Of a stretch of 64,000 nucleotides of DNA, positions 24,142 through 40,928 are shown piece by piece. The stretch lies in the NCBI GenBank assembly GCA_963666735.1, contig OY762926.1:3840001-3904000 (forward strand). Direction: 5' to 3'. Both the position numbers and the translations under genes were made by a program. Under the pieces are notes generated by a model, which ran no database searches, was not told where the DNA came from, and worked only from the letters and a program-made list of their open reading frames with translations. This stretch comes from Gemmatimonadota bacterium. Lineage in GTDB: Bacteria > Gemmatimonadota > Gemmatimonadetes > Palauibacterales > Palauibacteraceae. The stretch's first letter is position 1. The number at the start of each line of letters is the position of its first letter.

Positions 24142-24845
24142 CTGCTAGCCCGTCTCACCCTCACGGTACTGATCATCGGCGGTCTCGCCGCCTGCGGCGA
24201 TGACAGCCGCACCCCGACGGAAGACGAAGATCCCATCCGCACCGTGCTCGCACAGGCGGTGGGCGCGCTGAGCCCCGGGCAGTATTACATGTTCAACGGG
24301 TCGGCCGTGGACGGACCCTACGACCTTGACGCGGGGCCGTACCCTGAGGGGAGCGCGCAGGTGCGGGTGATCTTCTCGAAGATGGTGGAGCGGATCAACG
24401 CGGTCGTCGAGGGTACCGACAACGTGCAGACCGCGATGCACCCGAACTGCGAGCTTGCGCTGCCCGCCCCACAAGGCGACCAGGATGATTTTCTGGATTG
24501 CATCCTGAGCCTCGACACCTGCGGCGAAGTTCGGATCATCTGGCGGCCGTCGCAAAGAACCATCGAGGCGTGGTGCTACGAGTAGGAGAGAGAGCGATGC
24601 ACCCCGACTGGGGGCGCGATGCATCCTAATCGGTGGCTGCCCGCGAGCGACAAGCTGCGCCCAAAGGCCGCTTCCACCGCACTCACACCGCTTCACGCGA
24701 AACCCGCACAGAGCCAGCACACCGCAGGCCAGCACACCCCTGTTCTGATACGGTAATCACCTGACAACTGCCCCCAAGAAAGGGGACGGTGGCCACCCGG
24801 CCTCCGCCGAGGTTAGTTGACAAGTGTGCTTTTGCCTCGGTGCTG

Positions 24846-26148: not shown

Positions 26149-26179
26149 CTGGGTACCATCAGGTTCGCGTGGAGGCGTC

Positions 26180-27400
26180 GTGCGTGTACTGAGTTCCGCA
26201 TCTCTAGCGTTCGGTTCGCTGCTCTGGGCGGCGTCGGTTACTGCCGTCCAGTCCGGCGGTCTCCGCTTGGTCGAGGAACTCCGGTTGGGTCGTATCGAAG
26301 GGTTGGAGTCCGACCTGTTCGGCGATATCCACGACCTCGCCGTCGACGGCGATGGCCGGATCTATGTGGTCGATCCGGGCATGCAAAACGTGCGGATCTT
26401 CGACCGAGATGGACAAATCGTCCGTGAGATCGCGCCCGAGGGCGAGGGCCCCGGCGAACGTCGTCATCGCCGCATGTCGTACCTCGGTCCCACCAGCGTG
26501 ACGTGGGAACCGAACCGTGCGCGGCTCTGGATTGATGACGGTTTTCAACGGCAGGTGCTGGATTCGCTCGGGGTGGAGTACCGGCGCGACATGCGCACCG
26601 GCAACTTCTATACCAACCCAAGTATTCCAGCTGGCAAGATCGTGCAGTTCGATAAGCGGGGCCATATCTATGAGTACCAGCGCCTGCCCATCGGGGACAC
26701 CACTGTCTCATACGTCGCCCGTGGCGTCCCGACGGCGGAGTACGGTGTGGTGTTCAGCGACACGCTTACCATCGATTCCCGGGCTCTCGAGAGCGGTGAG
26801 ATTCGAACGACCGAGAGGACGATTGGCTCTTCCCGAGTCAGCATTGCCGTCTCCGACAAACGGCCCGAGCGCGATGAACACGCTTGGACCGTCTCGACGG
26901 CGCGCGGCACGGTCTGGATATCCGTCAACGAGCGCCGCCAGCTACACGAGGTCGCGTTCACGGGTGACACGCTCCGCACGTTCGATCTGGAAACGGCATC
27001 GAACGAACTGGATGTTTCACCCGAGGGTTGGATCTGGATTCGACACAGCGGTGCCAACCCCGAAACTACATGGGACCTGCTGGACAACTGCGGCGAGCGC
27101 CGGGGTTCCGTCTCGCTTCCCGTTCCCGTCTCGTTGACGCACGTGGGCCGTCGCGGTGTAGTACATGTGGTGTGGTCGGATGATCTCGACATCGAGTACA
27201 TCATGCGCCTGCGACTGGAAGGTGATGTAGACCGCCGGACGTGCCAGGCAAGCCAAACGCCCAATGTGGATCTTCCTCCTCGGCTTCGCCGCTGCTGCGA
27301 CCATGGCGCTCGCCTGCGGCGCCCCGGCGCCGGACGAGGGGACCGGCGAGGTACTGGAGTGGATCCTGCGACGGGGTCTCGCCATCGGAAGCGCGGATGA
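26180..27400 (+). CDS. Secreted 6-bladed beta-propeller (NHL/TolB-like) protein
   Basis: Signal peptide; EELRLG...FGDIHDLAVDGDGRIYVVD...VRIFDRDG...EGEGPGE; C-terminal DDLDIEYIMRLRL; the tail overlapping the next gene may be read-through. Confidence 0.8.
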   Translation: MRVLSSASLAFGSLLWAASVTAVQSGGLRLVEELRLGRIEGLESDLFGDIHDLAVDGDGRIYVVDPGMQNVRIFDRDGQIVREIAPEGEGPGERRHRRMSYLGPTSVTWEPNRARLWIDDGFQRQVLDSLGVEYRRDMRTGNFYTNPSIPAGKIVQFDKRGHIYEYQRLPIGDTTVSYVARGVPTAEYGVVFSDTLTIDSRALESGEIRTTERTIGSSRVSIAVSDKRPERDEHAWTVSTARGTVWISVNERRQLHEVAFTGDTLRTFDLETASNELDVSPEGWIWIRHSGANPETTWDLLDNCGERRGSVSLPVPVSLTHVGRRGVVHVVWSDDLDIEYIMRLRLEGDVDRRTCQASQTPNVDLPPRLRRCCDHGARLRRPGAGRGDRRGTGVDPATGSRHRKRG

Positions 27401-28448
27401 TCCGGCGTACGGACTCTGGGCCGTCGGCGGGGTGCTGGCCGACGAGGACCGTGTGCCTCGTGGCACGGGACGGCACGATCCGGATCTTCACTCGTGACGG
27501 CGAGTTCGTCCGCGACCTCGGGGGCCGTGGATCCGGCCCCGGCGAGCTGACACTCCCGACGACGCCGGGTTGGAGCGAACCGGGGACTCTATCGATCGGC
27601 GACGCGGAACTGCGGCGCTTCACGTTCTATGATGTCGCCACCGGCGAGGTGGGGACGATCCCTTACCACGCGTACTTGCCGGAGGCGCACGGAGCAACAG
27701 CATTCGATCCGGTGGTCGTACTGACAGATTTGCGTGCGGCAGCCGCGCTGCGGCCTTCGGACGCGGCTCCCGAGCGAGGGATCCTCACGACCGTACCCAT
27801 GGTGGTGTTGGACGCGGCGGGCGCGCTGCTCGGCTCGACACGCTCGCGCTGCTATCGGCGCAGACTTCCCGCAACGTCACAGCTGGCGTGGTGGCGGATG
27901 GCACGGTGCGCTTGGGACGCCCCGTTCAGCAAGGGGACAAGTGGCGATTCGCGCCTGACAGGTCGAGCATCGTGGTCGTCGAGGGCGGGACCTGGGCGGG
28001 GGAGGGCCCGGCCGAGTTCGGTGTGACAATGGTGGATTCCAACGGCGACACTCTGTTCCACCGTCGCATCGCCTATACACCGCGCCCGGTGCCGGACGGC
28101 TACTACGATGCCGAGATCGAGAAGATGTTTGATCATCGAATTATGGCTGAAGCCTTGGCTGACCGGCGTGCGGTCACGAACGCCGTACGGGGATTCTACG
28201 AGCAAGCCCGCTATTATCCTCCCCTTACCAACGTAATAGTGGGCAGCGACGGCACCGCTTGGATCGCGGGACTCGACGAGGATGGCGAGCGCGAGTGGCT
28301 CGTGCTCGATGCTTCGGGAGCGTCCATCGGGCGCTTACGGCTACCCGCCGGGTGGCATGTGCGCTACGGGAACCGGAACGAAGCCTGGATGGTGGAGCGG
28401 GATGCGCTCGACATCCCATACGTCGTGCGCTACGAGATCATGCACTAG
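27264..28448 (+). pseudogene. 6-bladed beta-propeller lipoprotein with at least two frameshifts
   Basis: ALAC lipobox and AIGSADDPAY in one frame, IRIFTRDGEFVRDLGGRGSGPGE in a second, VGSDGTAWI...RDALDIPYVVRYEI in the 27888-28448 ORF. Confidence 0.8.
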
Positions 28449-30093
28449 GAGCTTGCGCGGTAGAACGGTCGCGAAGGGCGGCGGATCCCGGGAAGCGCGG
28501 CCGCCCGGAGGCTGAGGGGCGCCGGTTGTCGGCGGGAGCCGCCGTCGCGCGGGCGAAGCCGCCGCGCCGGCGCCGTTTCCGGGTGGATCCGGCCGCGTTT
28601 CGGGCCCCGGAGGCCCTCCGGCGCGAAGATTTCGCCCCTCACGCGGCCCGAAGGACGTGGAGGCGCCGCGCGTTGAGCGCCAGACACACCAGATCCCACT
28701 CGCCGCGCACGTTCTCCAAGCCCCTGAGGCTGAACCTCCTGAACCCCATCGCCTCCTTGACCCACCCGATGGGCGCTTCGGCGATCCACTTGCGCTTGGC
28801 ATACACCGCCCGGCCTTGGGGAGTCTCCAGCTTCTTCGCCATGCGCGCCGTCGCCGGGAGCTTCTTCGGGTCGGGCTTGCCGGCCCCCTTGCCCTCCCGG
28901 CCCAGCGCCACGTAGCCGTCGATCCCCCGCGCATCCAGAGCCGCCAGATCCTCCTCGTTCGAGTAGCCCGCGTCGGCCAGCACCTCGCCCGGCGTCTCCC
29001 CCAACCGCCCGGACACCTCGTCCACCCGCTCCACCAGCTGCCCCTGGTCGCTCGCGTTGTCGGTCACCTCCGCCCCCAGCACCAGCTGGCTCTCGCCGTC
29101 GACCACCGCCTGCGCGTTGTAGCACTGCTGGTAGCCCTCCGTGCTCGTCCGCATGATCCGGCTCTCCGGATCCGTGAAGTTCGTCTGCGAGTCCGCCTCC
29201 GGCTCCCCGTAGGCCAGCTTGTACGGCGACCCCCCCTTCGGGTTGCGGTCCCACTCCGGCTCCCGGCCCCGCGCGTCGTCGCGCTCCCGCGCCTCCGCCT
29301 CCAGACGAGCCCGCGCCGCCCGGATCGCCGCCAGCCGGTCCTCCCGCCGCTTCAGCTCCTCCGGCAGCTCGTCGCCCCGAACGTCCTCCCCGTGCCGCTC
29401 GTCCTCCTCCGCGTCGGCCGCCTCCGCACGCGCCAGCAACTCCGCGATCTCCGCCTCCAGGCGCGCCTCCTCCGGACCCATCCGCCCGTAGCTCATCGCC
29501 TTCCGCTTGCTCGCGTTCGCCCGAACCTTCGTCCCGTCCACCGCCACCCGGCCCAGCCCCGCCAGACCCAGCTCCCGCGCCAGAAGCACCGCCTCGGCGA
29601 ACAACGCACCGAACGCCCTCAGGTTCTTCTTCCGGAACTCGCACAGCGTCCGGTGCGCCGGAAAGTTCCCCGCCGCCAGCATCCTGAGCGGCACGTCCTC
29701 CTCCAGCTTCCGCGCCAGCTTCCGAGACGAGAACACCCCCGTCGCGTAACCGTACAGCAGAACCTTCACCATCATCCGCGGATCGTACGGGCTCCGACGG
29801 CGTCCGTCCCCCTCGTACCGCGCGTAGAACGCCGACAGGTCCAGCGCGTCCACCAGATCGCTCACGTGGTGCGCCAGATGCCCCGCCGGCACCCACTCGC
29901 GAAGATCCTGCGGCAGCAGCAACCGCTGGTCCGGATCGTACGGGCGGAACCTCGTCCGCATCCTCTCCGGATCGTACGGTAGAGACCTCGCACTCATCGC
30001 CAACTCCCCGCGCCGAACTTGAACCCGTCACAGCACGCCATCACCATAACCACCCGAAACGCGCCGCACCATCGGTTTCTACGGCGCAGGCTC
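28449..30093 (-). mobile_element. IS1182-family element, complete
   Basis: IRs GAGCTTGCGCGGTAGAA / TTCTACGGCGCAGGCTC; CTAG duplicated at 28445-28448 and 30094-30097. Confidence 0.92.
28639..29961 (-). CDS. IS1182 transposase
   Basis: FRPYDPDQRLLLPQDLREWVPAGHLA, YDPRMMVKVLLYGYATGVFSSRKL, VDGTKVRANAS, LADAGY, MGFRRFSLRGL. Confidence 0.95.
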   Translation of the reverse strand: MRTRFRPYDPDQRLLLPQDLREWVPAGHLAHHVSDLVDALDLSAFYARYEGDGRRRSPYDPRMMVKVLLYGYATGVFSSRKLARKLEEDVPLRMLAAGNFPAHRTLCEFRKKNLRAFGALFAEAVLLARELGLAGLGRVAVDGTKVRANASKRKAMSYGRMGPEEARLEAEIAELLARAEAADAEEDERHGEDVRGDELPEELKRREDRLAAIRAARARLEAEARERDDARGREPEWDRNPKGGSPYKLAYGEPEADSQTNFTDPESRIMRTSTEGYQQCYNAQAVVDGESQLVLGAEVTDNASDQGQLVERVDEVSGRLGETPGEVLADAGYSNEEDLAALDARGIDGYVALGREGKGAGKPDPKKLPATARMAKKLETPQGRAVYAKRKWIAEAPIGWVKEAMGFRRFSLRGLENVRGEWDLVCLALNARRLHVLRAA

Positions 30094-31415
30094 CTAGGCG
30101 GTAGCTCGGGGGTTGACCCCGCGCCGCCGTCCTCGCTCCCGGAGCCCACGGCGCGCTGCAGGACCTCCTGGATGTCGAGGCCCAGCACCGACGCGAGCCC
30201 CTCCATCGTCCCGTAGGCGCCGCGCACCCGCTGGTTGAGCGCGTTGGACACGCCCTCGCCCTGGCCCCCGTCCATGACGACGACGCGGTCGATGTCCACG
30301 CCCTCCACGGCGCCCACGGCGATCTCGAGCAGTTCGGGGAGCTTCTCGGCCATGAACACGGCGAACGCGGCCTCGCCTCCGGTCTGAACCTCGGCGTAGA
30401 GCCGCTTCAGGACCTCGACCTGGGCCTTCCCGCGCTCCAGGATCGGCGCCGCCTCGGCCTCGGCCCGCGCGAACGCGGCCATCTTCTCGGCCTTGGCGGG
30501 CTCGATGACGTCCGCCCGCAGGCGCTGCTCCTCGCGCTCCACGCGCTTCATCTCGAGGATCTTCTCGGCCTCGACCTCGGCCTCCTGCGCCTTCACGCGC
30601 GCGATCTTCTCGGCCGTGTCGCCCTCGCGGTGCAGTTCGGCCTTGCGCACGCGCAACTCGTTCTGGGCTTCGGCGACCTTGATCGAGGCGGCCGCCTCCC
30701 GCACCTCCGCGCGCCGCCTCGCCTCGGCCTGGGCCTCGCGCGTGTCGGCTTCGGCCTGGGCCTCGGCGATCTCCGCGGCCCGGATCGCCTCGGCCGACTT
30801 TTCGCGGCCGATCGCCTCGAGGTAGCCGCGCTCGTCGCTCACGTTCTGGATCTTGAGCACGTCGAGGTGGAAGCCCAGCGATGCCAGATCCTCCCCCGCG
30901 TCCTCCGACAGCGCCTTGGCGAACCCCAGCCGGTCCTCGTTCACGGCCTCCGGGGTGAGCGTGGCGAGGACGCCGCGCAGGTTCCCGGTGAGCGTGTCCT
31001 GGGCCAGTTCGCGGACTTCCGTCTCCGTCTTCCCCAGCAGGCGCTCCACGGCGTTGTTGAACACCCACTCGGGCTCCGAGGCGATCTTCACGTTCGCGAT
31101 CGCCTCCACGTTGAGCGGGATGTTTCCCTTCGAGAAGGCGTTGGTGACGAAGACCTCGATGGGGATGGTCTCGAGGTTCATGTGCTGGACCGTCTCGATG
31201 ATCGGGATCCGGAGCGTGCGCCCGCCCGAAATGGAGCGGTAGCCGACGGCCTGGCCATCGGTCAGCATGCGGTTCCGGCCCGTGATCACGGCGGCGCGGT
31301 TGGGGGGGACGATCACGATCAGGTTCTTGATGGTGACGATCGCCACGAGCACGACGACGATGAAGACGGCCGCCATCGTGACCGGGGCGGCCAGGAGATT
31401 CAGAAAATCTTGCAT
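29994..31415 (-). CDS. Flotillin-like SPFH/band 7 protein (C-terminus extended into the IS)
   Basis: N-terminal TM, IVPPNRAAVITG, LTGNLRGVLATLTPE, LKIQNVSD, AEA-rich coiled coil. Confidence 0.9.
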   Translation of the reverse strand: MQDFLNLLAAPVTMAAVFIVVVLVAIVTIKNLIVIVPPNRAAVITGRNRMLTDGQAVGYRSISGGRTLRIPIIETVQHMNLETIPIEVFVTNAFSKGNIPLNVEAIANVKIASEPEWVFNNAVERLLGKTETEVRELAQDTLTGNLRGVLATLTPEAVNEDRLGFAKALSEDAGEDLASLGFHLDVLKIQNVSDERGYLEAIGREKSAEAIRAAEIAEAQAEADTREAQAEARRRAEVREAAASIKVAEAQNELRVRKAELHREGDTAEKIARVKAQEAEVEAEKILEMKRVEREEQRLRADVIEPAKAEKMAAFARAEAEAAPILERGKAQVEVLKRLYAEVQTGGEAAFAVFMAEKLPELLEIAVGAVEGVDIDRVVVMDGGQGEGVSNALNQRVRGAYGTMEGLASVLGLDIQEVLQRAVGSGSEDGGAGSTPELPPRSLRRRNRWCGAFRVVMVMACCDGFKFGAGSWR

Positions 31416-31422
31416 TTGGACC

Positions 31423-31983
31423 TCATTCCTCGAGCAGCTTCATGTCCACCGGCACGACGTTCGCGATGCCGTCCGTCATGCGCACGACGACGACCGACTG
31501 CCCGGCGCGCAGCGGCAGATCGTCCGGGCAGGTCGAGTCCAGGCGGGCCCGCACGCTGTAGCGGCGCTGCCCGCGCGACACCTTCACCGTACCCGCGCCG
31601 TCCGGCGCTATTTCCATCGTCACCTTGCCGGTCAGCCCGGCCAGCGACTGCTCGCCGAGCGCGGTGCCGGCGCCCGACCGCTTGATGTAACGGAAGGCGG
31701 CGCTGATGAAGGCCCCGGAGGCCAGCCCCGTGATGCCGGCGACGACGCCCGTGACCGCGGGACCCGTGAACCAGTGCAGAATGGACCCGGTCGCGCCGAA
31801 CCCGAACAGGGCGTAGACGATCGTCCGCAGCGAGAGGAGCCTCGCCACATCGGCCCCTCCCCCCGCGTCAAGTTCCGCGTCGACATCCACGTCGATGTCC
31901 ATGCCGTCCAGGAAGTCGCCGAAGACGGACAGCGCGAGGAACCCGCCGCCTACCAGGAGACAGAAGACGTATATCGTGAACAT
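31423..31983 (-). CDS. NfeD-like membrane partner of flotillin
   Basis: TM segments, acidic DIDVDVD linker, C-terminal OB-fold-like GLTGKVTMEI...GTVKV; directly upstream of flotillin. Confidence 0.8.
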   Translation of the reverse strand: MFTIYVFCLLVGGGFLALSVFGDFLDGMDIDVDVDAELDAGGGADVARLLSLRTIVYALFGFGATGSILHWFTGPAVTGVVAGITGLASGAFISAAFRYIKRSGAGTALGEQSLAGLTGKVTMEIAPDGAGTVKVSRGQRRYSVRARLDSTCPDDLPLRAGQSVVVVRMTDGIANVVPVDMKLLEE

Positions 31984-32031
31984 GAACGGCTCTCCCTTCG
32001 GGACCGGGGCGTCGAAACCTACCGGCCCGCC

Positions 32032-32907
32032 TCATGATGCGCCTCCGCCGGACCAGGCCGCGACCGTCTCCCGCACGAAGTCGTCGAACACGCGCGGCGC
32101 GTGGCCCAGCACATGACTCATCGTCGCGAAGTCCTCCTCGGTCGCGATGAGCCCGTCGGAGAGGAAGTGCTCCGACATCGCCCGCAGGTCCCTCACGAGC
32201 CAGCCCGGCAGCCGCCGGCCCGCGCGCGTCTCCCACGCGTCGAGGTCGTCGCCGGCGTACTCGATCTCGCGGTCGAGGTGATCGCTCCAGACTCGGGCGA
32301 CATCCTCGGACATCAGGAGTTCGGGCCCGACGACCGGATACCGGATCCCGGCATGGCCGTCGTCGAGGAGCGCGTTCACGGTGGCGTCGGCGATGTCGCG
32401 CACGTCGACCCGGTGCAGTCCCACGGCCCCGAGCGGCGCGGGATAGACGCCGGCTTCGAGCGACCGCCTCAGCCACAGGTCGTTCTGGAAATAGTGGTTC
32501 GGTTCGATCGTCACCCAGGGGACGCCGGAGGCTTCGAGCGCCGCGAGGATCTCCATCTTGCTCGCGAAGTGGGGGATGTGGGGCGCCGCATGCGCGCGGT
32601 GTGCGGAATGGAAGACGATCCGCTCGACACCGGCCTCCGCGGCCGCGTCGATCGCCCCGATGCCGAGCTGCGCCTCCCGCGGGTGGAGCGCGGTGAGGAG
32701 GTGCATGCGCGACACGCCTTCGAGCGCCGGCCCGAGCGTGTCGGGCTGCTCCAGGTCGCCCAGTACGAATTCGACCCCGTCGTCCGACGCTCCGGCTCTG
32801 TCCGCCGAGCGCGTCAAGCACCGCACCGATACTCCGCGGGCCGCCAGCCCGTCGACAACCGGACGCCCAACGGTCCCTGTCCCGCCGATGCAAAGCACAT
32901 CCGCCAT
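32032..32907 (-). CDS. NmrA-family NAD(P)-binding protein
   Basis: IGGTGTVG Rossmann motif, GDLEQPDTL, PHFASK, VDVRDIADA. Confidence 0.9.
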   Translation of the reverse strand: MADVLCIGGTGTVGRPVVDGLAARGVSVRCLTRSADRAGASDDGVEFVLGDLEQPDTLGPALEGVSRMHLLTALHPREAQLGIGAIDAAAEAGVERIVFHSAHRAHAAPHIPHFASKMEILAALEASGVPWVTIEPNHYFQNDLWLRRSLEAGVYPAPLGAVGLHRVDVRDIADATVNALLDDGHAGIRYPVVGPELLMSEDVARVWSDHLDREIEYAGDDLDAWETRAGRRLPGWLVRDLRAMSEHFLSDGLIATEEDFATMSHVLGHAPRVFDDFVRETVAAWSGGGAS

Positions 32908-32957
32908 CCATGCCTCCTGTTCTCCGTCGTTTCTCCGTGGCTCCGATTCTGCGATCC

Positions 32958-32985
32958 CGCAAGATTTCGACGATACGTGGCATCC
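32958..32985 (+). promoter_or_regulatory. Putative ECF sigma-dependent promoter upstream of the Cys-rich peptide cassette
   Basis: CGCAAGATTTC-N8-GTGGCATCC, same spacing as the copies at 7171 and 10328. Confidence 0.5.
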
Positions 32986-33179
32986 GGAGGGCAGGCGAGT
33001 GCCGTCAGGCGTCGCCCCGCCGCCGGCCCGCCGCGAGCGAGTTGAGGATCCGTTGATGGGCGGCCGGACTCTGGAGGTGAATCTCGGGAGGCACGGGGCG
33101 GAGGGTCCGTCCCGGAGGGTCGAAGCGGGCTGCGGCGGCCGCGACCCGGCCTCCCGAAGACCCGGAAGGGGAGGGGACG

Positions 33180-33437
33180 ATGAAGACGATGAAGACGATG
33201 AAAGCCGGGCGCTGGGTGCTGCTTGGTTTCAACCTCGTGCTGGCGACGGCCATCCTGGCGCAACCCGGTCAGGCCGCGTCCGCGCGCGGGGGCGACGACT
33301 GCATGATGGAGTGTTTCCAGGGATGGACGGAGTGCGTCCTGGACCACATTTGGGGCTGCAATTACGAACTCAACCAGTGCATGCGGGGATGCCTGTTTCC
33401 CGTCTGGGGGCCCCCCACAGATCCCTATCCCTTCTGA
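33180..33437 (+). CDS. Small secreted Cys-rich peptide 1 (6 Cys, Cx3Cx6Cx7Cx6Cx3C)
   Basis: GGAGG RBS; leader RWVLLGFNLVLATAILAQPGQAAS shared with 36819-37049. Confidence 0.85.
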   Translation: MKTMKTMKAGRWVLLGFNLVLATAILAQPGQAASARGGDDCMMECFQGWTECVLDHIWGCNYELNQCMRGCLFPVWGPPTDPYPF

Positions 33438-33480
33438 ATCGGTTCCGAATCGGTTCTGAAGCCCTTCTAACGGTGATCAC

Positions 33481-34755
33481 ATGAAGCTCGATACCACGGG
33501 GGCCGGCCCGCGGCCCCGGTACTGGACGACACTCGCGGCGGCGATGCTGGCTGCCGCGTGTCCGGAAGGGGAGAACCCCGCCGACACGGTCGGTTCGGCG
33601 GAGCCGGGAACGGACATCGGAACGGACGTCGGAGCGGACCCCGCGCACCTTCGCGCGGGGCCGCCCCGCGTGCGACTCGGAAGCTGGACCGGTGAGGGAC
33701 ACACGGACTTCCACGACATCGCCGGTGTCGTCGTCGACCGGTCGGCCGACGCCCTGATCGTAGCGAACCGGGGGGACGCGACCCTGCGCGCGTTCACCCT
33801 CGATGGGGAGTGGCGCAGCACGCGGGGAGGAGTCGGGAGCGGCCCGCGCGAACTCGAGGAACTGACGGCGCTGTTCGAATACCGCGGCGACTCCCTCGCC
33901 GCATACGATGGAGAACGGGGCGACGTCTCCATTTGGCCGTATGCCGGCGGGGACGTGCGGCGAGTTCCCGTCCCGACCCTTTCGGGGGACACGCTGCGGA
34001 CCCCGGGGTTCCACGGTTCCACGGTCGACGGCCGGCTGGTGTGGGCGGTGTCGAGACTCGACCGGATCGTCGACGAGATCGGCGAGTCCCACCCGCGGCG
34101 CCTTGTCATCTTCCTGACGTCGCCGGAGGGAGCGGGCTTCGATCCCATCGCCGAGACCACGGGTGAACGGTTCTTCCAGTACGGGGGAGACGCGTACATC
34201 TCGGGCAGGATTCCGTTTTCTCCCCGGGCCTTCGTGCTCCCACGCGACTCGGACATTCTCTACGGGTCCACGGAACGTCCGCGCGCGGAGCGCGTTGCGG
34301 ATACCGGCGTCTCGCTGGCTCCGATCGCATTCTCGGTCACGGCGGCTCCCGTTACGGCCGCGCATCGGGAGACGGCGCTTGCGGGCATCCGCGCTCGGCT
34401 GGACCGGCCCCTCCCGACCTCGCTTCGGACCCTCATAGCAACCACGCTCGATGTGTGGGCGTTTCCCGACTCCTTCCCGGTTCTGGGCGATGTCGCGGCC
34501 GGCGAGGACGGGCGCGTGTGGGTGACCGCCTCCCGGCCGCCGGAGGCGGACCCCACCCGCGCGGCAGTAGAGATCACGGTCTGGCGCGTGTACGCGGGAC
34601 CGGGAAGCCCGGGCCGGGACATCGAATTCCCCGGCGATTTCCGCCTGCTGTGGGCCGACGAAACCGAAGCCGTCGGAGTGGTGCGGGATGAACTCGACAT
34701 AGAACACGTCCTGGTCCTGCCGCTTCCGCCGGTCGCCGGCCCGATGGACTCATGA
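33481..34755 (+). CDS. 6-bladed beta-propeller-type lipoprotein
   Basis: LAAAC lipobox; FHDIAGVVVD, RAFTLDGEW...GGVGSGPRE, AGEDGRVWV, C-terminal RDELDIEHV. Confidence 0.8.
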   Translation: MKLDTTGAGPRPRYWTTLAAAMLAAACPEGENPADTVGSAEPGTDIGTDVGADPAHLRAGPPRVRLGSWTGEGHTDFHDIAGVVVDRSADALIVANRGDATLRAFTLDGEWRSTRGGVGSGPRELEELTALFEYRGDSLAAYDGERGDVSIWPYAGGDVRRVPVPTLSGDTLRTPGFHGSTVDGRLVWAVSRLDRIVDEIGESHPRRLVIFLTSPEGAGFDPIAETTGERFFQYGGDAYISGRIPFSPRAFVLPRDSDILYGSTERPRAERVADTGVSLAPIAFSVTAAPVTAAHRETALAGIRARLDRPLPTSLRTLIATTLDVWAFPDSFPVLGDVAAGEDGRVWVTASRPPEADPTRAAVEITVWRVYAGPGSPGRDIEFPGDFRLLWADETEAVGVVRDELDIEHVLVLPLPPVAGPMDS

Positions 34756-35396
34756 AGCGGCCCGGAGTCCAGGACATCGGCTTGGCGGTGTGCTTCCTCC
34801 TCCTCGCTGCCATCGCGTTCCGGCCATCGGGGGTCGTGGGTAGCCGTATCCGAGAGTGGAACGCCGAGCGGCAGGTGCTCGCGCTGTATCGCGAGGAAGG
34901 GAAGAAGGCCGCTGCGACCAGGAAGAGTGTGCTCGGAAGCGGCGATGCCGCGCACGTGATCTTCGAGTTCAGCGACTACCGCTGCCCCTTCTGCCGTTCG
35001 TCTCACGAGATCGTGGACGAGTGGGTTGCCGGCGACAGCGTGAAGGTCGTGCTGGTTCACGTTCCGCTCTCCGACCGCACGCGAGAGGCTGCGCGGACGG
35101 CGATCTGCGCGGAAAAGAGCGGGGCCTTTCGGCGCCTGCACGACTACCTCATGACGAACGACGACTGGGAGTCCATGGACGTGGCCTGGGAGTCCGTTGC
35201 CGCGGCGGCCGGCGTTCCCGCGGGAACGCGGTTCGTCCGCTGCCTGGAGTCGGCGGCGACGACCGAGCGCCTCGCCCGCGACGCCGCGCTCGCCGCCCGC
35301 TGGCGGGTCACCGGCACCCCGACCTTCGTATCGGAGCACGCCCGGATCGCCGGAGCCGTGTCGGAGGCCGACCTCGCAGAGTTGCTCGGCCGGTAG
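34752..35396 (+). CDS. DsbA-family thioredoxin-fold disulfide oxidoreductase, membrane anchored
   Basis: FEFSDYRCPFC active site, HVPL, VTGTPTF cis-Pro loop, N-terminal TM. Confidence 0.9.
   Translation: MKRPGVQDIGLAVCFLLLAAIAFRPSGVVGSRIREWNAERQVLALYREEGKKAAATRKSVLGSGDAAHVIFEFSDYRCPFCRSSHEIVDEWVAGDSVKVVLVHVPLSDRTREAARTAICAEKSGAFRRLHDYLMTNDDWESMDVAWESVAAAAGVPAGTRFVRCLESAATTERLARDAALAARWRVTGTPTFVSEHARIAGAVSEADLAELLGR
35212..35229. repeat. Perfect palindrome GCGTTCCCGCGGGAACGC (parS-like copy 1)
   Basis: 16-bp core CGTTCCCGCGGGAACG identical at 41155 and 58496. Confidence 0.7.
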
Positions 35397-35445
35397 TCCG
35401 TACCTATCCTTGCATATCACATATTGTACTATGTAATTTACAAGG

Positions 35446-36648
35446 ATGTTGATTCCAAGGAGTGCAGCGAACGACATCGAGCACGGGCTGGCGCGCCAAG
35501 CGGCCGTCGCCCTGCTCGGCGTGCGACAGGTGGGCAAGACCACCCTGGCCCTGGACATCGCCCGGCGAACCGGGGCGGTCTACCTCGACCTTCAGACGCG
35601 CTCGGCCCGTACGAAGCTGTCCGATCCGCAGTTCTTTCTGGGCCAATACGCGGATCGTCTCGTGATCCTGGATGAAGTTCACCGCGTCCCGGATCTGTTC
35701 CCCGAGCTACGGAGCCTCATCGACCGGGGTCGGCGCCACGGACGGCGGACCGGTCGTTTCCTCATCCTGGGATCGGCCTCCGTCGAACTGCTCAAACAGG
35801 CCGGCGAGAGCCTGGCCGGCAGAATCGAGTTCGTGTCCCTTGGGCCTCTGAACGTGCTCGAGAGCCAGGCCCACGCCGACACCGGAATACCGCTGTGGGT
35901 CCGGGGCGGGCTGCCCGACAGCTTCCTGGCCGCGAGCGATGAGGACAGCTACGCCTTCCGCAGGCACTTCATTCAGACCTACCTGGAGCGGGACGTGGGA
36001 GAGTTCGTGGCGCGGCGGCTGCCGGCGGAGACGCTCCGCCGCCTGTGGACGATGCTCGCGCACTGGCAGGGAGGGCTGCTCCGCGCCTCGGAACTGGCCC
36101 GAAGCCTCGCGATCAACACGGCGACGGTAGGCCGTTACATCGATACGCTGACCAGCCTCTTCATCGTGCGGCGGCTGCCTCCCTTCCTGACGAACGTGCG
36201 CAAGCGGCTCGTCAAGTCGCCCAAGGTCTATGTCCGTGACAGCGGCCTCGTACACGCACTCCTGCGCATCGGCGATTTCGAGGCACTCGCGGGGCACCCC
36301 GTATCGGGCGCCAGCTGGGAGGGATTCGTCATCGAAAATCTGCTCGCGGCGGCTCCGCCGGAAACCGGGGCGAGCTTCTACCGGACGCAGGCCGGAGCGG
36401 AAATGGACCTCGTCCTGGAGCTGCCGGGCTTCGCGAGGCCGTGGGCCATCGAGATCAAACGTGGTCTCGTGCCTCGGCCCGGCCGAGGGTTCCGAAACGC
36501 CCTGGAGGATCTACGGCCGGATCGCGCATTCGTAGTCTACGGAGGCGATGAGAGGTACGCTCTCGCATCCGGCGTTGAGGCGATCGGCGTGAAGGAAATG
36601 GCCAAGCTTCTCGCGAGTCTCCGCACTCCACGCGCGCAGGATCTGTAG
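35446..36648 (+). CDS. AAA+ ATPase with DUF4143 domain and C-terminal restriction-endonuclease-like motif
   Basis: GVRQVGKT, VILDEVHR, FLILGSAS, KRLVKSPKVYVRDSGL, EMDLVL...AIEIK; AT-rich imperfect inverted repeat at 35409-35444 upstream. Confidence 0.92.
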   Translation: MLIPRSAANDIEHGLARQAAVALLGVRQVGKTTLALDIARRTGAVYLDLQTRSARTKLSDPQFFLGQYADRLVILDEVHRVPDLFPELRSLIDRGRRHGRRTGRFLILGSASVELLKQAGESLAGRIEFVSLGPLNVLESQAHADTGIPLWVRGGLPDSFLAASDEDSYAFRRHFIQTYLERDVGEFVARRLPAETLRRLWTMLAHWQGGLLRASELARSLAINTATVGRYIDTLTSLFIVRRLPPFLTNVRKRLVKSPKVYVRDSGLVHALLRIGDFEALAGHPVSGASWEGFVIENLLAAAPPETGASFYRTQAGAEMDLVLELPGFARPWAIEIKRGLVPRPGRGFRNALEDLRPDRAFVVYGGDERYALASGVEAIGVKEMAKLLASLRTPRAQDL

Positions 36649-36818
36649 CGTCCCGTACCCCGCGGCGCCTGCGGCCTGCCTTTGAGACTGCGTTGACGCA
36701 CGAAGCCAAGTATGGGGTGGACCTCGGGAGCAAGGGACGGAGGGACCGTCTCGAGGGTCGGGCCGCGGGAACGGAACAGGGGCCAGCCCGGCGCGCCCGA
36801 ACGCAAGAAGGGAGGACG

Positions 36819-37049
36819 ATGATGAAGCGACGATGGGCACTCCTGGCTTTCAATCTCGTGCTGGCCACGGCCATCCTCGTACAGCCCGGCAGGGCGGCGT
36901 CCACATGCGACTTCAACGACTGCACCTGCGCATGCCTGGAGCTATGGGAGAACTGCTTCACGGACTGGGACGAGGTACGGAAGTGCGACTGGTTGTACGG
37001 GATCTGCATGTGGCTTACGTCGTGCGAGGCGGAGCCGACACGACTCTGA
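36819..37049 (+). CDS. Small secreted Cys-rich peptide 2 (8 Cys)
   Basis: GGAGG RBS; MMKRRWALLAFNLVLATAILVQPGRAAS leader followed by TCDFNDCTCACLELWENC...KCDWLYGICMWLTSC. Confidence 0.85.
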   Translation: MMKRRWALLAFNLVLATAILVQPGRAASTCDFNDCTCACLELWENCFTDWDEVRKCDWLYGICMWLTSCEAEPTRL

Positions 37050-37693
37050 TGGTCGGCCCGTCAAGCACCGGTGCGAGGAGGATCGCGGCCATCGTGATGA
37101 TGGCCGCGGTCCTCTGCGCACTCCCGGGGTGCGGTGAGCCTCCGGTCGAGTGGCCGGAGTCGAGTCCGTTCCCCACCCGGTCCATTCACCTGGGCATGAC
37201 GCATGGCGAATTGATGAGGGCACGCACCACGCTCTACGTCAACGAGGAGGGCAGGATCGAGGAAGCCGTCGTCCGAGGCTGGATGCACTACGGCTTCACG
37301 GCGTCGCGCCTTGGACCGCCGGACGCGGGCTCCAAACTCATCTACGTCGATATCGAGGAAAACGAGACGAATCGCCGGCGGGCAGAGACTCGATGGGCCA
37401 CACTCGTGGCCGACTTGGCGGAAGATCTCGGCGTGGAGCCCGAGTGCATGGAACTGAAGTACGGACGGCTCGACCTTCGGCGCGCGACGCTGCTCCCGCG
37501 CGATTCGACTCTCGCAGCGGCCGTCGAGGTCCACATCGAGTCGGAAGCTCCCGGGTCCGAAGTGGCCGGCGTGACCACCCGCATGTGGCTCCCGGAGCAC
37601 CCGTCGTCGCTCGCCGACGGCACACGTCTCCCGGGCGCGGCACTGCCCGATTGGCAGCCTTGCGAGGAGTCGCCGGGCTCCCCGCCCGGTTAG
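37049..37693 (+). CDS. Hypothetical lipoprotein coupled to peptide 2
   Basis: ATG overlaps the peptide TGA (TGATG); LPGC lipobox; IHLGMTHGELMRAR. Confidence 0.7.
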   Translation: MVGPSSTGARRIAAIVMMAAVLCALPGCGEPPVEWPESSPFPTRSIHLGMTHGELMRARTTLYVNEEGRIEEAVVRGWMHYGFTASRLGPPDAGSKLIYVDIEENETNRRRAETRWATLVADLAEDLGVEPECMELKYGRLDLRRATLLPRDSTLAAAVEVHIESEAPGSEVAGVTTRMWLPEHPSSLADGTRLPGAALPDWQPCEESPGSPPG

Positions 37694-38469
37694 CGCACTT
37701 CCGTCGGACGGGTCGCCCCGGGTCTCGCCCAGGCGGCGTCTCCCGTCGTGATGCGGGTCAGCGCGTTGTCGAGGTCGGCCATGTACCGGCCCACATCGGC
37801 CTCGGCGATCGGAGGGCCGTGGATCGGCGCGATCCAGGCCGGAGGATGCCGTTCCAGCATGGTGCGCAGGGCGCCCATGACGCGCTCCGGGTCCGCGTAG
37901 CGCAGCCAGGGCAGGGTCTGGGCGTGGAATTCGTGCACGCCTTCCGCGCGTCCGTCCTCCGGGATCCGTCCCCAATCGATGTCGCAGGCGCCGGGGGCGT
38001 GCAGTGTACCGAAGCCGTCCGCCACGAAGAGCGTGCGCGAGGCTGCGTCGTAGACCCACGTCGTGTGGTTGCGGTCGGCGAGCGGAGGGTCGAGAACCAC
38101 GAAGCGTCGGCCGAGGACGTCCGTCACGTCTCCGATCTTCGTGCGGCGCGCGTACGGGAGCCCCTGAAGGTCGGGGTCGCCGCAGGAGGCGACGATCTCG
38201 AAGTCGCCCCAGTCCCGGCGAAAGGCGGGAATGTTGCCCGAGTGGGGATAGTCGGAGTGGGACAGGATGATGGCCCCGACGCCCCGCCCGGCGGTGGCGT
38301 CGCGGATTCGGTCCGAGAGGCGCCGCCGGTGGTGGAAGGAGCCGGAGTCCAGGAGGATCGCCCCCTCCGGCGCCTCGACGAGATAGACCGAGACGTGGAT
38401 GTGGGCGTCCGTCTCCGGGAAGCACTCGTGGACCCAGGAGACCCCGCCGCCCAGATGGATGACGCTCAC
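37690..38469 (-). CDS. Metallo-beta-lactamase-fold protein (FprA/ODP-like)
   Basis: SVYLV...ILLDSG, LSHSDYPHSGN, TLFVADGFG, IAPIHG. Confidence 0.85.
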   Translation of the reverse strand: MSVIHLGGGVSWVHECFPETDAHIHVSVYLVEAPEGAILLDSGSFHHRRRLSDRIRDATAGRGVGAIILSHSDYPHSGNIPAFRRDWGDFEIVASCGDPDLQGLPYARRTKIGDVTDVLGRRFVVLDPPLADRNHTTWVYDAASRTLFVADGFGTLHAPGACDIDWGRIPEDGRAEGVHEFHAQTLPWLRYADPERVMGALRTMLERHPPAWIAPIHGPPIAEADVGRYMADLDNALTRITTGDAAWARPGATRPTEVR

Positions 38470-38503
38470 CGTGCGCTCCCGCTCAGGCGACGTGTTCGCC
38501 CGC

Positions 38504-39385
38504 TCACAGGACGCCGCCGCGCCCGCCCGCCGCCACCCGCCGCACGACCTCGTTCAGGCGTTCGTAGTAGGGCGCCGCGTCCTCCCCCGGGATCGGAAGT
38601 CCGTGCGCCGGCGCGAACCCGTAGCCGTCAAAGCGGGCCGCAAGCGCGCCCGTCGCCGCCGTCACCTTTTGCGGCACCACGTACTGGAACCAGAACATGA
38701 CCCGGCTGTGGAACTCCTCGAGGCGCCCCACGTCCACCGGCGTGTCGATTTCGTCCGTGCGCCGCAGGCATTCGCCGCTCTGGTGCGGGAACCCCATCCA
38801 GTCGACCGTGAAGAGGGTGCGGGTCGTCTCCTCGCTCATCCACGTGTGAATCGCGGCGTCGAGGAAGGTCGCCTCCGGAAAGCGGACCCGGAGCCCGCCG
38901 AGATCGATTTCGTCATCGGGCCCCACCTTCATCGCGTCGTCGAGGTGGTACAGCGCGTGCGTCTCGCCGGTCGCCGGCGCCACGAGACGGCAGTCCGGGT
39001 AGCGCCGCAGCACCTGCATCGTATTCCCCGCGTGCGGCACGTCGGGATGCGAGAGGGCGAGGTAGTCGAGCGGTCGCTCCCCAAGTAGTTCCTCGAGCCC
39101 CGGGACCAGGACATGGCCCGAAGCCGGAGAGAGGGTGTCCCAGAGCAGCGTCCGGTCGCCCGTCAGCAGGTACGCGTTCTGCGGAACGTGAAGCTCGTTC
39201 CCAGGCGTGTACCAGTCCGCGCCGCTCTCCCGCACCGCGCGCGCGATCCCGGCCCGGTGCCCGCCGCACTCCTGGATCCAGTGGATCCCGGGCCAAACGT
39301 CGCGCCGCCAGCCGGCTTCCGTTCGCGCCGTCGGCATCGGGGCCGCAGTCGGCGGCTTCGTGGCGTCGCTTCCGAGTTCGTTCAT
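38504..39385 (-). CDS. Metallo-beta-lactamase-fold protein (FprA/ODP-like), paralogue
   Basis: QNAYLL...LLWDT, LSHPDVPHAGN, TLFTVDWMG, FAPAHG. Confidence 0.85.
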   Translation of the reverse strand: MNELGSDATKPPTAAPMPTARTEAGWRRDVWPGIHWIQECGGHRAGIARAVRESGADWYTPGNELHVPQNAYLLTGDRTLLWDTLSPASGHVLVPGLEELLGERPLDYLALSHPDVPHAGNTMQVLRRYPDCRLVAPATGETHALYHLDDAMKVGPDDEIDLGGLRVRFPEATFLDAAIHTWMSEETTRTLFTVDWMGFPHQSGECLRRTDEIDTPVDVGRLEEFHSRVMFWFQYVVPQKVTAATGALAARFDGYGFAPAHGLPIPGEDAAPYYERLNEVVRRVAAGGRGGVL

Positions 39386-39448
39386 GCGCGGCAGTCTACG
39401 CGGCCCCCGCCCGTCGCCACCAGTCCGGGAGATCCGCGCCCGCCGGTC

Positions 39449-39832
39449 CTATCCCAGCCGGAAGTTCAGCGCCGCCGCACCCTCCGCCTGCCGTTCGTCG
39501 AGAGTGATGAACGAGATGGCCGAAGGCCGCGGGGCTACATGCAGGGCGCACGCCACGTGCCAGAGATCCGCGCCCCGCAAATCGCCGGCCCGGAGCGCGG
39601 CCCGCATCTGTCGCGACAGAGGCCGGCTCGGCTGAATCCAGCTGAACCCGGCGACCAGATCCTCCGGAAAGGGCTTTCCTTCTCTGGCGCAGACGGATCG
39701 CAGTTCGGCTTCCAGGAGGTTGGATGACATCAGGTCCCGGAACCTGCGCAATCGGCGGACGATCTCGTCCGCGCCGGCCTCGACGAAAGCGACCGAGACG
39801 AGCGCGGACGTGTCCACATAGGCGGCGCTCAC
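39449..39832 (-). CDS. vapC: PIN-domain (VapC-like) toxin
   Basis: AYVDTSALV, SNLLEAEL, LRGADLWHVACA, FITLDERQ. Confidence 0.88.
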   Translation of the reverse strand: MSAAYVDTSALVSVAFVEAGADEIVRRLRRFRDLMSSNLLEAELRSVCAREGKPFPEDLVAGFSWIQPSRPLSRQMRAALRAGDLRGADLWHVACALHVAPRPSAISFITLDERQAEGAAALNFRLG

Positions 39833-39935
39833 TCTCCCCGGTCGGCCAGAAAGCGTTTCAGGGTGCCCGGCACCGGCGTACCCAGCTCGAGGGGCTCCCG
39901 TGGCCTGTCCTCGACGAAGGCGTCACATTTCCTCC

Positions 39936-40928
39936 ATGAATGTCAGAGGATGGTCTACTCCATCATCAGGACGTCAATTCGCGTGGGCCGCGGCGGCCTT
40001 CGCGGCGGCCGGCTGTTCGCCGTCCGGAGAGGAGGCGGCGTTCCCGAGCCGGCCCATCGAGATCGTCTCGTGGGCGACACCCGGCGGACCGACCGACCTC
40101 CTCTCGCGGGCCCTGGCCGACGCCGCGCCCCCGCACTTCGAGGGTCGGCGCGTCACAGTCATGACGCGGCAGGGCGGGGCGGGCGCCGCCGGCATGCAGT
40201 ACCTGCAGGGGCGGGAAGCCGATCCGCATGTGCTCGGGGTCTTCACGGCGAGCGGCACCGTGAACATGGCGACGGGGCGGATTCCGTTCTCTCCCGAGGA
40301 CTTCACCCCCATCCTCCGCATCCAGATCGATCCCTTCCTGATCGCGGTGCGGGACGACAGTCCCTTCCACACGCTCGGGGACCTGTTCGCGGCGGCCCAC
40401 GCCCGGCCGGGCGAGGTCTCGATGGCGGGGTTCGGGGCGGCGTCGGCCCACTTCCTCGGCTTCGCCCGTCTGAGGGCTGCGGCGGGCGACCCGGATGTCC
40501 GCTGGATTGCGTACGAGGGGTCGGCTGACGCGGTGGTGGCGGCGCTCGGCGGGCACACGGACGCGGCGCACACGAACTACAACATCGTGCGTGAGCACCT
40601 GAGAGCGGGGACCATGCGGGTACTGGGCGTGGCGCTTCCCGTCGAGGCGCTGCCGGACACGCCGAGCTACGCGGAGCAGGGATACGACCTCCAGCCCGTC
40701 CATTGGCGGGGCGTGGTCGGACCGCCGGGACTCGCCCCCGAATTGCGCGCCGACATCCGCGCGCGGCTGCTGGCCGCCATCGAGGACCCGGGGTTCCGCG
40801 AATACATGGAGCGGGCCGCGCTGGAATACGCGACGATGGCGGACGCGGACGCGTTCGGCGCCTGGATGGCCGAGGAGGTGGCGACGAGCCGGGACATGCT
40901 GCGGCGGCTGGGAATCCTGGATGAGTAG
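39936..40928 (+). CDS. tctC: Tripartite tricarboxylate transporter substrate-binding protein
   Basis: AAGC lipobox, FPSRPIEIV..PGGPTDLLSR, GGAGAAG, HWRGVVGPPGL. Confidence 0.9.
   Translation: MNVRGWSTPSSGRQFAWAAAAFAAAGCSPSGEEAAFPSRPIEIVSWATPGGPTDLLSRALADAAPPHFEGRRVTVMTRQGGAGAAGMQYLQGREADPHVLGVFTASGTVNMATGRIPFSPEDFTPILRIQIDPFLIAVRDDSPFHTLGDLFAAAHARPGEVSMAGFGAASAHFLGFARLRAAAGDPDVRWIAYEGSADAVVAALGGHTDAAHTNYNIVREHLRAGTMRVLGVALPVEALPDTPSYAEQGYDLQPVHWRGVVGPPGLAPELRADIRARLLAAIEDPGFREYMERAALEYATMADADAFGAWMAEEVATSRDMLRRLGILDE

Follow-up and report, generated by a model that had tools for sequence, protein, structure and literature searches.

A stretch of 64,000 nucleotides from a Gemmatimonadota bacterium (contig OY762926.1 of assembly GCA_963666735.1), referred to here as the window, contains two genes for small cysteine-rich peptides with Sec-type leaders, pep1 and pep2, that are accompanied by the genes of two predicted lipoproteins and of an oxidoreductase of the DsbA family. 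The genome consists of a single 3.98-Mb contig, of which the window is positions 3840001-3904000, and DNA nearly identical to the window was found mostly in sponge metagenome runs. The names that homologues bear assign it to the genus Candidatus Palauibacter within the Gemmatimonadota. As shown in Table 1, both small open reading frames (ORFs) lie where an initial annotation of the window had placed them, 33180-33437 and 36819-37049, each preceded by the strong Shine-Dalgarno sequence claimed for it. Their leaders, RWVLLGFNLVLATAILAQPGQAAS in pep1 and RWALLAFNLVLATAILVQPGRAAS in pep2, are identical at 20 of 24 residues and differ at the other 4, and the cores have in common the scaffold D-C-x3-C-x3-W-x2-C ... 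C-x6-C-M, also as described. The further claim, that the leader is conserved in its DNA as well, holds only in part: between the two paralogues, 9 codon positions of the leader show synonymous differences, which places the constraint on the protein.

In a protein search of the genome, pep1 and pep2 find each other reciprocally with E values of 5.6e-13 and 1.3e-12, and with mutual values around 1e-12 their likeness is not due to chance. The GC content at third codon positions (GC3) of both genes, 0.81-0.82, is in line with that of the adjacent genes. Neither peptide matched a Pfam family at E <= 0.01 or any NCBIfam family, and a PDB profile search with the peptide alignment gave matches at chance level only, the best of them (E 0.035) to a histone-fold protein; Rfam, promoter and terminator scans of the locus returned nothing useful. 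In one RNA library, contigs from a close relative cover 33187-33555 (pep1 and the following spacer) and 34107-34426 (within the propeller gene), a weak hint of expression, as DNA is possible in such libraries; the uncovered DsbA and pep2 genes are not evidence of silence. Taken together, pep1 and pep2 are real, conserved genes.

Table 1. Features of the peptide locus and related modules of the same genome. Positions are those of the window.
Feature	Position	Strand	Basis or remark
pep1 Shine-Dalgarno, GGAGG	33170..33174	+	read from sequence
pep1 ORF	33180-33437	+	85 amino acids (aa)
pep1 leader, 34 codons: basic n-region, h-region WVLLGFNLVLATAIL, c-region AQPGQAAS	33180..33281	+	putative cleavage site, placed by eye
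pep1 core, 51 aa, isoelectric point (pI) 4.1, 6 Cys C-x3-C-x6-C-x7-C-x6-C-x3-C, 3 Trp, invariant W49	33282..33437	+	family alignment and AlphaFold2 (AF2) model
Lipoprotein of 424 aa (prop424), divergent, probably 6-bladed NHL/DUF5128-like beta-propeller, single Cys	33481..34755	+	profile, fold and homology evidence
Membrane-anchored DsbA-family oxidoreductase, CPFC at residues 78-81	34752..35396	+	Pfam PF13462, PF01323
AAA_14 + DUF4143 ATPase gene, variable insertion between DsbA and pep2, not of the module	35446..36648	+	Pfam
pep2 Shine-Dalgarno, GGGAGG	36810..36815	+	read from sequence
pep2 ORF, 76 aa; core of 48 aa, pI 4.05, 8 Cys	36819..37049	+	leader as in pep1 at 20/24 residues
Lipoprotein of 214 aa, lipobox LPGC, family-less, translationally coupled to pep2	37049..37693	+	no Pfam/NCBIfam match
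Window module: pep1, propeller, DsbA (CPFC)
Module B: 73-aa peptide, DsbA (CPFC), 446-aa propeller, 67-aa peptide			propeller matches PF17170, 29.4 bits
Module C: 77-aa peptide, then 599-aa DsbA-propeller fusion (CPAC)
Module D: 79-aa peptide, DsbA (CRYC), 430-aa propeller
Module E: truncated DsbA, 420-aa propeller, multicopper oxidase

The pep1 gene is separated by 43 bp from that of prop424, the protein that had been described as a beta-propeller lipoprotein, a description upheld by a propeller-like model of moderate confidence and by an invariant lipobox Cys, C27. This residue, in the lipobox LAAAC, is conserved in all 23 sequences aligned and is the only Cys of the protein. The profile of the 23 orthologues matches NHL-repeat structures (E 2e-4), the Pfam NHL repeat is weakly touched by six of them, and the AF2 model is all-beta (predicted local distance difference test, pLDDT, of 62.8); almost all of the top matches listed for it are propellers, with none outstanding (Foldseek TM 0.3-0.4, VIA Z up to 10.3). 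Against PF17170 (DUF5128, "6-bladed beta-propeller") prop424 gave no direct match up to E 10, only NHL being found (E 0.12). Its profile (A2) does retrieve paralogues over the PF17170 cut-off, for instance at genome positions 2414969-2416324, 2661510-2662673 and 3251756-3252979, and the nearest named clusters of the ESM Atlas are Gemmatimonadota clusters that carry PF17170 (score 0.97).

The start of the DsbA gene overlaps the stop of the propeller gene (ATGA). Its product scores over the cut-off with PF13462 (63 bits, 5e-17) and PF01323 (53 bits, 5e-14) and has a G-T-P-T loop that can be read in the sequence, which confirms the CPFC DsbA-family protein announced at this place. That this DsbA is a dedicated one agrees with the presence of a separate DsbA-VKOR pair elsewhere in the genome and with a propeller that has its lipobox Cys only; because of the latter, the peptides are the sole Cys-rich substrates encoded in the operon. 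The coupling of pep2 to a lipoprotein gene was also found as described, the stop codon at 37047-37049 overlapping the ATG at 37049 (TGATG); the 214-aa product is annotated in the ESM Atlas simply as "lipoprotein". Among the ORFs scanned, from 23908 to 40928, there is no enzyme for ribosomally synthesized and post-translationally modified peptides (RiPPs) and no peptidase-containing ATP-binding cassette (ABC) exporter, as the initial annotation had noted.

The order of these genes in relatives was studied by mapping the window proteins onto 20 loci from 19 genomes of the genus. The triad of pep1, propeller and DsbA is complete in 16 of the 20 and occupies a constant chromosomal place, between an NmrA-like gene and two genes of the metallo-beta-lactamase fold. 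Two loci stop after pep1 and the propeller at contig ends, and a deletion in genome G014 (L025 7350-7734) removes the stretch between mid-pep1 and the final 50 codons of the propeller gene. The pair of pep2 and the 214-aa lipoprotein is present in six of the 20 loci, always together (6/6) and directly after the DsbA gene; a seventh locus, in G029, has a pep2-like gene beside pep1 and a remnant of the lipoprotein. The triad recurs in genus g50, from another family of the class. A 73-aa homologue with 8 Cys there has a diverged leader that keeps the Asn of the h-region and ends in A-M-A; next to it comes a propeller (40% identity), to which two of the three loci add a DsbA (53-55% identity). The ancestral operon order proposed here is pep1, propeller lipoprotein, DsbA, pep2 and 214-aa lipoprotein. 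The AAA_14/DUF4143 gene, absent at this place in G017, G014 and G007, displaced or fragmentary in other relatives and with at least 17 paralogues in the genome, is an insertion; an AT-rich stretch, 35400-35445, precedes it.

A many-membered, diversifying family had been predicted, with a search by leader profile as the way to find it. No large family was found: the leader occurs twice in this genome, with no further copies in a protein search and in a regular-expression and six-frame scan, and hardly any members lie outside one genus. Matches to pep2 at E <= 1e-9 were obtained in 22 of 35 other genomes of the same genus, with one or two copies in each, and no match below E 0.1 in 25 genomes from other genera of the order. 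A profile of 17 aligned members (A1) detected the family in 15 of 19 additional genomes sampled from the genus and in three genomes of g50, which belongs to another family (E about 1e-9). The same profile gave 16 matches at E <= 1e-3 among 1.84 billion representative proteins, about nine of them small true members; P0062 and P0064 are small proteins with the same Cys spacing and a different leader. The peptide family is small and nearly genus-restricted.

Other matches of this profile are long repeat proteins of 133-509 aa (P0056, P0057, P0059, P0060, P0061 and P0063), with 2-7 Cys hairpin repeats of a spacing near that of pep1, no Pfam family and eukaryote-like Ser/Thr-rich linkers; we do not claim homology for them, and their likeness may be due to convergence or to distant homology. 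Six other genomes with weak profile matches (E 6.6e-4 to 4e-3) were not counted as members either. The three of these that were retrieved, genomes from another Gemmatimonadota family, hold a different kind of small protein with 4 Cys and a signal peptide (L058 6877-7650, L059 7229-7456 and L060 6714-6968; G-C-L-G...Y-G-E-C-L-G...), present as two tandem copies in L058.

The leader and the core of the peptides are under very different constraint. In alignment A1 the invariant positions are R11, W12, L14, L15, N18, L21, T23, A24, L26, Q28, P29, G30, A32 and A33 in the leader and C41, C45, W49, C52, C60 and C67 in the core. The pep1 leader is near-invariant across the 17 members, including the polar N18 and T23 and Q28-P-G. 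For 13 pep1 orthologues, the ratio of nonsynonymous to synonymous substitution rates (dN/dS) was 0.07 in the leader (24 codons, dS 0.15) and 0.46 in the core (31 scaffold codons, dS 0.45), or 0.58 when Cys codons were omitted. Thus, the earlier statement that the leader is more conserved than its cargo was right, and the diversification proposed for the cores was not supported: their dN/dS is below 1, which means relaxed selection on the pep1 core and does not demonstrate positive selection. As a control, the propeller encoded in this operon was considered, and most of the first 26 positions of its signal peptide are without a majority residue. The leader dS is one third of that of the core, a difference that may stem from constraint on the RNA close to the start or from sampling noise, the leader counting 24 codons. 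With a K/R-rich start, an h-region of 15 residues and the end AQPGQA-AS, a layout read by eye, both leaders appear to be canonical Sec-type signals and are probably cleaved; in the AF2 model, residues 9-26 of pep1 form a helix apart from the core.

The core itself was modelled by AF2 with the family alignment as two helices, 38-55 and 60-72, with a pLDDT of about 80 in the core. The Cys spacing is mirror-image (4, 7 | 7, 4) and would allow the putative hairpin to be closed by three rungs of disulfides, C41-C71, C45-C67 and C52-C60. A structure search with this model retrieved only generic helical hairpins (Z <= 6.2). Prediction of a complex between the pep1 core (35-85) and the propeller (55-424) gave a score of 0.01 against a mark of 0.32, controls not being included, and counts neither for nor against binding.

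The association of these three kinds of genes is not unique to the window. A profile search of six-frame ORFs detected about 61 propeller paralogues of ~400 aa in the genome, several of them in tandem arrays of up to eight (G000:C1 2382507-2391171 is an example), an expansion that is striking for a 4-Mb genome. PF17170 is matched at 45 places of the genome, 23 of them over the cut-off, including 26180-27400 of the window. There are seven DsbA-like ORFs, five of which either neighbour a propeller paralogue or are joined to one in a single protein, and four of these five follow a Cys-rich ORF with a signal peptide (Table 1). Another DsbA gene adjoins the only VKOR gene, at 2.00 Mb, and is likely the housekeeping oxidase; no DsbB was found in the genome. 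In modules B, C and D the peptides carry 6-8 Cys and a Sec-type signal whose end is A-x-A-like, and their sequences are unrelated to pep1. Modules B and D (L061 6797-9361, L062 5347-6237) are flanked by transposase genes (helix-turn-helix and DDE) and have a GC3 below the rest of the genome, which suggests that they are mobile, and module E (L063 5544-7835) is directly upstream of a gene for a three-domain multicopper oxidase.

Across the whole genome, small ORFs were filtered for a length of 40-140 aa, an N-terminus that is first basic and next hydrophobic, four or more Cys beyond residue 20, little Arg, and polar content. The filter picked 14 ORFs, 10 of them within 700 bp of a propeller-family match on the same strand, to be compared with a background of 4.7% of the genome within 800 bp of such a match. 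The four exceptions are pep2, which is 2 kb away, an ORF without signal, a fragment of a larger enzyme and one orphan, and three further peptides missed by the filter also adjoin a propeller.

The DsbA-propeller fusion of module C is a member of a conserved family, 51 clusters in size, whose annotation goes no further than thioredoxin-domain or DsbA-family protein, with full-length copies also in a second family of the class. When compared by hhalign, residues 113-422 of prop424 align with residues 288-597 of the fusion (97.3% probability, E 1.9e-11, 295 columns), from which prop424 is, by sequence comparison, homologous to the C-terminal domain of the fusion. The coupled propeller and DsbA genes of the window are thus the split form of the fused protein, which is classical evidence that the two act together. 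In the loci of other genomes retrieved with the fusion, a convincing Cys-rich ORF with a signal peptide was found beside the DsbA or fusion gene in 10 of 30, as judged by eye, several of these ORFs sharing the motif C-x4-5-G-C-x2-C ... C-x4-C; ORFs in L069, L071, L073, L076 and L080 and one in L088, rich in Arg, Ser and Pro and apparently out of frame, were discarded by eye.

The explanation that we favour, with a likelihood somewhat below an even chance, is that of a periplasmic module for a mini-protein stapled by disulfides, which a propeller and a DsbA of its own, encoded alongside, would fold or hold. Across the modules, DsbA and propeller are conserved, and what varies is the Cys-rich peptide. 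According to this model, Sec would export the pre-peptides through a canonical, unusually constrained signal peptide, and the membrane-anchored DsbA of the operon would oxidise the six (pep1) or eight (pep2) Cys in the periplasm, where the oxidised core would fold into an acidic, Trp-rich helical hairpin. The propeller would be the working partner of the DsbA in a bipartite foldase/holdase, its most likely part being that of a platform to which the peptide binds. The folded mini-protein would be the released product of the module, possibly directed at other cells, at the host sponge or at a partner in the periplasm, for which the 214-aa lipoprotein is a candidate in the case of pep2. This division of tasks, oxidation by the DsbA and binding by the propeller, is the simplest reading of a propeller that lacks disulfides, of a housekeeping DsbA-VKOR pair at another place in the genome and of two conserved parts that are sometimes fused.

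Several observations weigh against this model. Genome G007 (L027) keeps pep1 and the DsbA with the propeller missing, and the partner of pep2 is an unrelated lipoprotein, not a propeller. The order of the split genes, propeller and then DsbA, is the reverse of that of the domains in the fusion, DsbA and then propeller. For the majority of the 61 propeller paralogues, no peptide or DsbA gene lies alongside, so the general role of the family is not peptide folding alone. Moreover, in a diderm cell export by Sec ends in the periplasm, and a released product therefore needs a further step. Contact of the peptide with the propeller and with the DsbA is itself presumed, leader cleavage and lipidation are read from motifs only, and the overall confidence of the AF2 models is moderate, with pLDDT values of 65 for pep1 and 63 for the propeller.

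A stable heteromeric complex, in which the mini-protein would stay permanently on the propeller as a small subunit or ligand, as pep2 would on the 214-aa lipoprotein, with the DsbA as an assembly factor only, is in our opinion unlikely, though to be taken seriously. It would account for the tight pairing of the genes, with the 43-bp gap between pep1 and the propeller and the translational coupling of pep2 to its lipoprotein, and for the peptide-propeller pairs that exist without DsbA elsewhere in the genome. There is also a precedent in the amine dehydrogenases with tryptophan tryptophylquinone (TTQ), where small Cys-rich light chains sit on propeller heavy chains in an arrangement that resembles the proposed complex, and heavy chains of aromatic amine and methylamine dehydrogenases do match, with Z 9.5-9.9, tied with many unrelated propellers. 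However, TTQ light chains are beta-rich and of roughly 125 aa, unlike the 35-residue helical hairpin of the core, and no cofactor-maturation gene (MauG or the radical S-adenosylmethionine protein QhpD) was detected among the scanned ORFs, the rest of the genome not being searched for it. The existence of pep1 without a propeller in G007 and of a fusion that makes the DsbA the fixed partner of the propeller argue in the same direction. The proposal of the initial annotation, toxins or bacteriocins whose adjacent lipoproteins would be cognate immunity proteins or receptors, appears to us rather improbable. A conserved leader with a faster-evolving core, unrelated cores across paralogous modules, the transposase genes that flank modules B and D and the strict, translationally coupled pairing of pep2 with the 214-aa lipoprotein would all be expected from it, and sublancin-type operons are known to carry their own thiol-disulfide oxidoreductases. 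Against this, neither an outer-membrane export route nor a peptidase-ABC exporter was found among the scanned ORFs, the cores are acidic (pI about 4.1), unlike most membrane-active peptides, their dN/dS of 0.46-0.58 is not above 1, and one or two copies per genome sit in a fixed place between housekeeping genes. A propeller fused to DsbA in paralogues would be odd for an immunity protein; with about 61 paralogues and homology to the C-terminal domain of the fusion, the propeller fits that role, or that of a cognate receptor, poorly, and these same facts lead to consider it as the working partner of the DsbA. A double-glycine-leader bacteriocin or class II microcin was rejected as well, the leader being of Sec type with an end in AAS and no C39 peptidase or ABC gene being present among the scanned ORFs.

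It is very unlikely, in our view, that the leader is an uncleaved signal anchor whose N18 and T23 mediate helix contacts in the inner membrane, with the hairpin exposed on the periplasmic side, where it would regulate a membrane complex or be one of its subunits. The extreme conservation of the hydrophobic segment, polar residues included (dN/dS 0.07), the h-region Asn kept even in the distant g50 homologues and the membrane anchor of the DsbA itself speak for such a membrane mini-protein; the textbook n-h-c layout, with Pro/Gly and small residues ahead of the core (AQPGQA-AS), the canonical A-M-A end of the g50 homologues and the A-x-A-type sites of all the unrelated peptides of other modules speak against it. 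The lowest probability, that of a highly unlikely event, corresponds to a thiolate metal binder, in which reduced Cys would bind Cu or Zn and the thioredoxin-fold protein would be a reductase or metallochaperone. The CxC and CxxxC motifs, especially C-T-C-A-C in pep2, and the position of module E directly upstream of a multicopper oxidase gene are in its favour, yet the neighbouring enzyme, of DsbA/BdbD type (PF13462), comes from a family of oxidases and is placed in the oxidising periplasm, the mirror-symmetric Cys spacing on two helices suits disulfide rungs, and no metal transporter or sensor was found in the operon.

The module of DsbA, propeller and peptide that we favour has partial counterparts among known systems. 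Loci of Bacteroidota pair NVEALA small proteins (PF14055) with 6-bladed propeller lipoproteins (PF17170, DUF5128), and the resemblance to them that was initially pointed out stands in part: the propeller paralogues pass PF17170, but the peptides are not NVEALA proteins. In both cases a small protein with a signal peptide is encoded beside a ~400-aa 6-bladed propeller of a much-expanded family. In contrast to NVEALA loci, the peptides here are Cys-rich and have no PF14055 match (the best in the whole genome reaches 14.4 bits, below the cut-off of 27, and lies away from pep1 and pep2), prop424 itself does not reach PF17170, and the modules, from the phylum Gemmatimonadota, include DsbA genes and DsbA-propeller fusions. 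No mention of "NVEALA" or "DUF5128" was found in the literature searched.

Dedicated DsbA paralogues are also known, such as DsbL, which serves the propeller enzyme AssT in uropathogenic E. coli, and BdbA/BdbB of the sublancin operon of Bacillus subtilis. As in these systems, an extra gene of the DsbA family is found here beside its presumed substrate and in addition to a housekeeping system, in this case DsbA-VKOR. Unlike them, there are five such paralogues per genome, each with a propeller, the propeller has no disulfide of its own, and the presumed substrates are peptides of roughly 50 aa.

Disulfide-stapled helical hairpins are found in the twin CX3C small Tim proteins, in CHCH (twin CX9C) proteins such as Cox17 and in plant alpha-hairpinins. 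The predicted core would share with them two antiparallel helices pinned by Cys pairs one or two turns apart, which fits both the AF2 model and the spacing, and the g50 homologue has a faint match to NDUFS5, a CHCH protein (E 0.14). It differs from them in having three rungs instead of two, in being bacterial, Sec-exported and periplasmic according to its leader, and in that no match to a sequence family was found for it.

A conserved signal and pro region with a variable mature core is characteristic of conotoxins. The same organization has been described in MgCRP-I, a family of Cys-rich peptides of mussel (PMC4558851). The peptides of the window resemble both in a leader more conserved than the mature peptide and in six invariant Cys, and differ from such large families under diversifying selection in having one or two genes per genome and a core dN/dS below 1.

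The joining of a thiol-disulfide oxidoreductase fold to an NHL propeller has a parallel in NHLRC2/SOQ1, in which a thioredoxin-like domain is fused to an NHL beta-propeller; in NHLRC2, conserved residues line the cleft between the domains, proposed as a partner-binding site, and the thioredoxin domain is TlpA/CcmG-like, with a CC(I/V)NC motif, the authors reporting no conserved operon partner (PMC6107167). The likeness consists in an oxidoreductase fold joined to a 6-bladed NHL-type propeller, and it is one of architecture, not of family: the enzymes described here are of DsbA type (PF13462/PF01323), have CPFC, CPAC or CRYC motifs and adjoin a Cys-rich peptide gene. Membership of the NHLRC2/SOQ1 type is ruled out by the CPFC (window) and CPAC (fusion) motifs together with the DsbA-type Pfam matches.

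Dedicated DsbA paralogues and peptide/propeller pairs are thus each known, and it is their combination, including a DsbA-propeller fusion after a Cys-rich peptide gene, that is undescribed in the literature searched, where nothing relevant was found on a dedicated DsbA with cysteine-rich peptides or on 6-bladed propellers with small proteins. An extended form of the model, which we consider fairly doubtful, is that in Gemmatimonadota, and perhaps in Bacteroidota through their DUF5128 propellers, genetically encoded, disulfide-rich peptides might be matured in the periplasm by a split or fused foldase of DsbA and 6-bladed propeller, the Sec leader doubling as a recognition leader that would hold the precursor near the anchored enzyme. 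If true, this would be an enzyme-light, RiPP-like pathway and would provide the first function for a large uncharacterised family of propeller lipoproteins. The combination itself gives a testable handle on DUF5128-type propellers, about 61 of them in a 4-Mb genome, and points to a potential source of small, disulfide-stapled and probably very stable mini-proteins in uncultured sponge-associated bacteria, and the near-invariant signal peptide, an unusual case, could reveal a role of Sec leaders beyond targeting.

Other propeller genes are also present in the window. The DUF5128 propeller gene at 26180-27400 (28 bits) adjoins an rve-type transposase gene (24933-26201, minus strand), and a second propeller-like frame, possibly frameshifted, is split over 27241-28026 and 27888-28448. 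Some relatives have a DsbA-like gene and a propeller upstream at about the distance of this 24933-28448 region. Finally, the segment 9993-10238 of the window matches the 6-blade propeller family TolB_like (PF15869) over the cut-off, with 41.6 bits.

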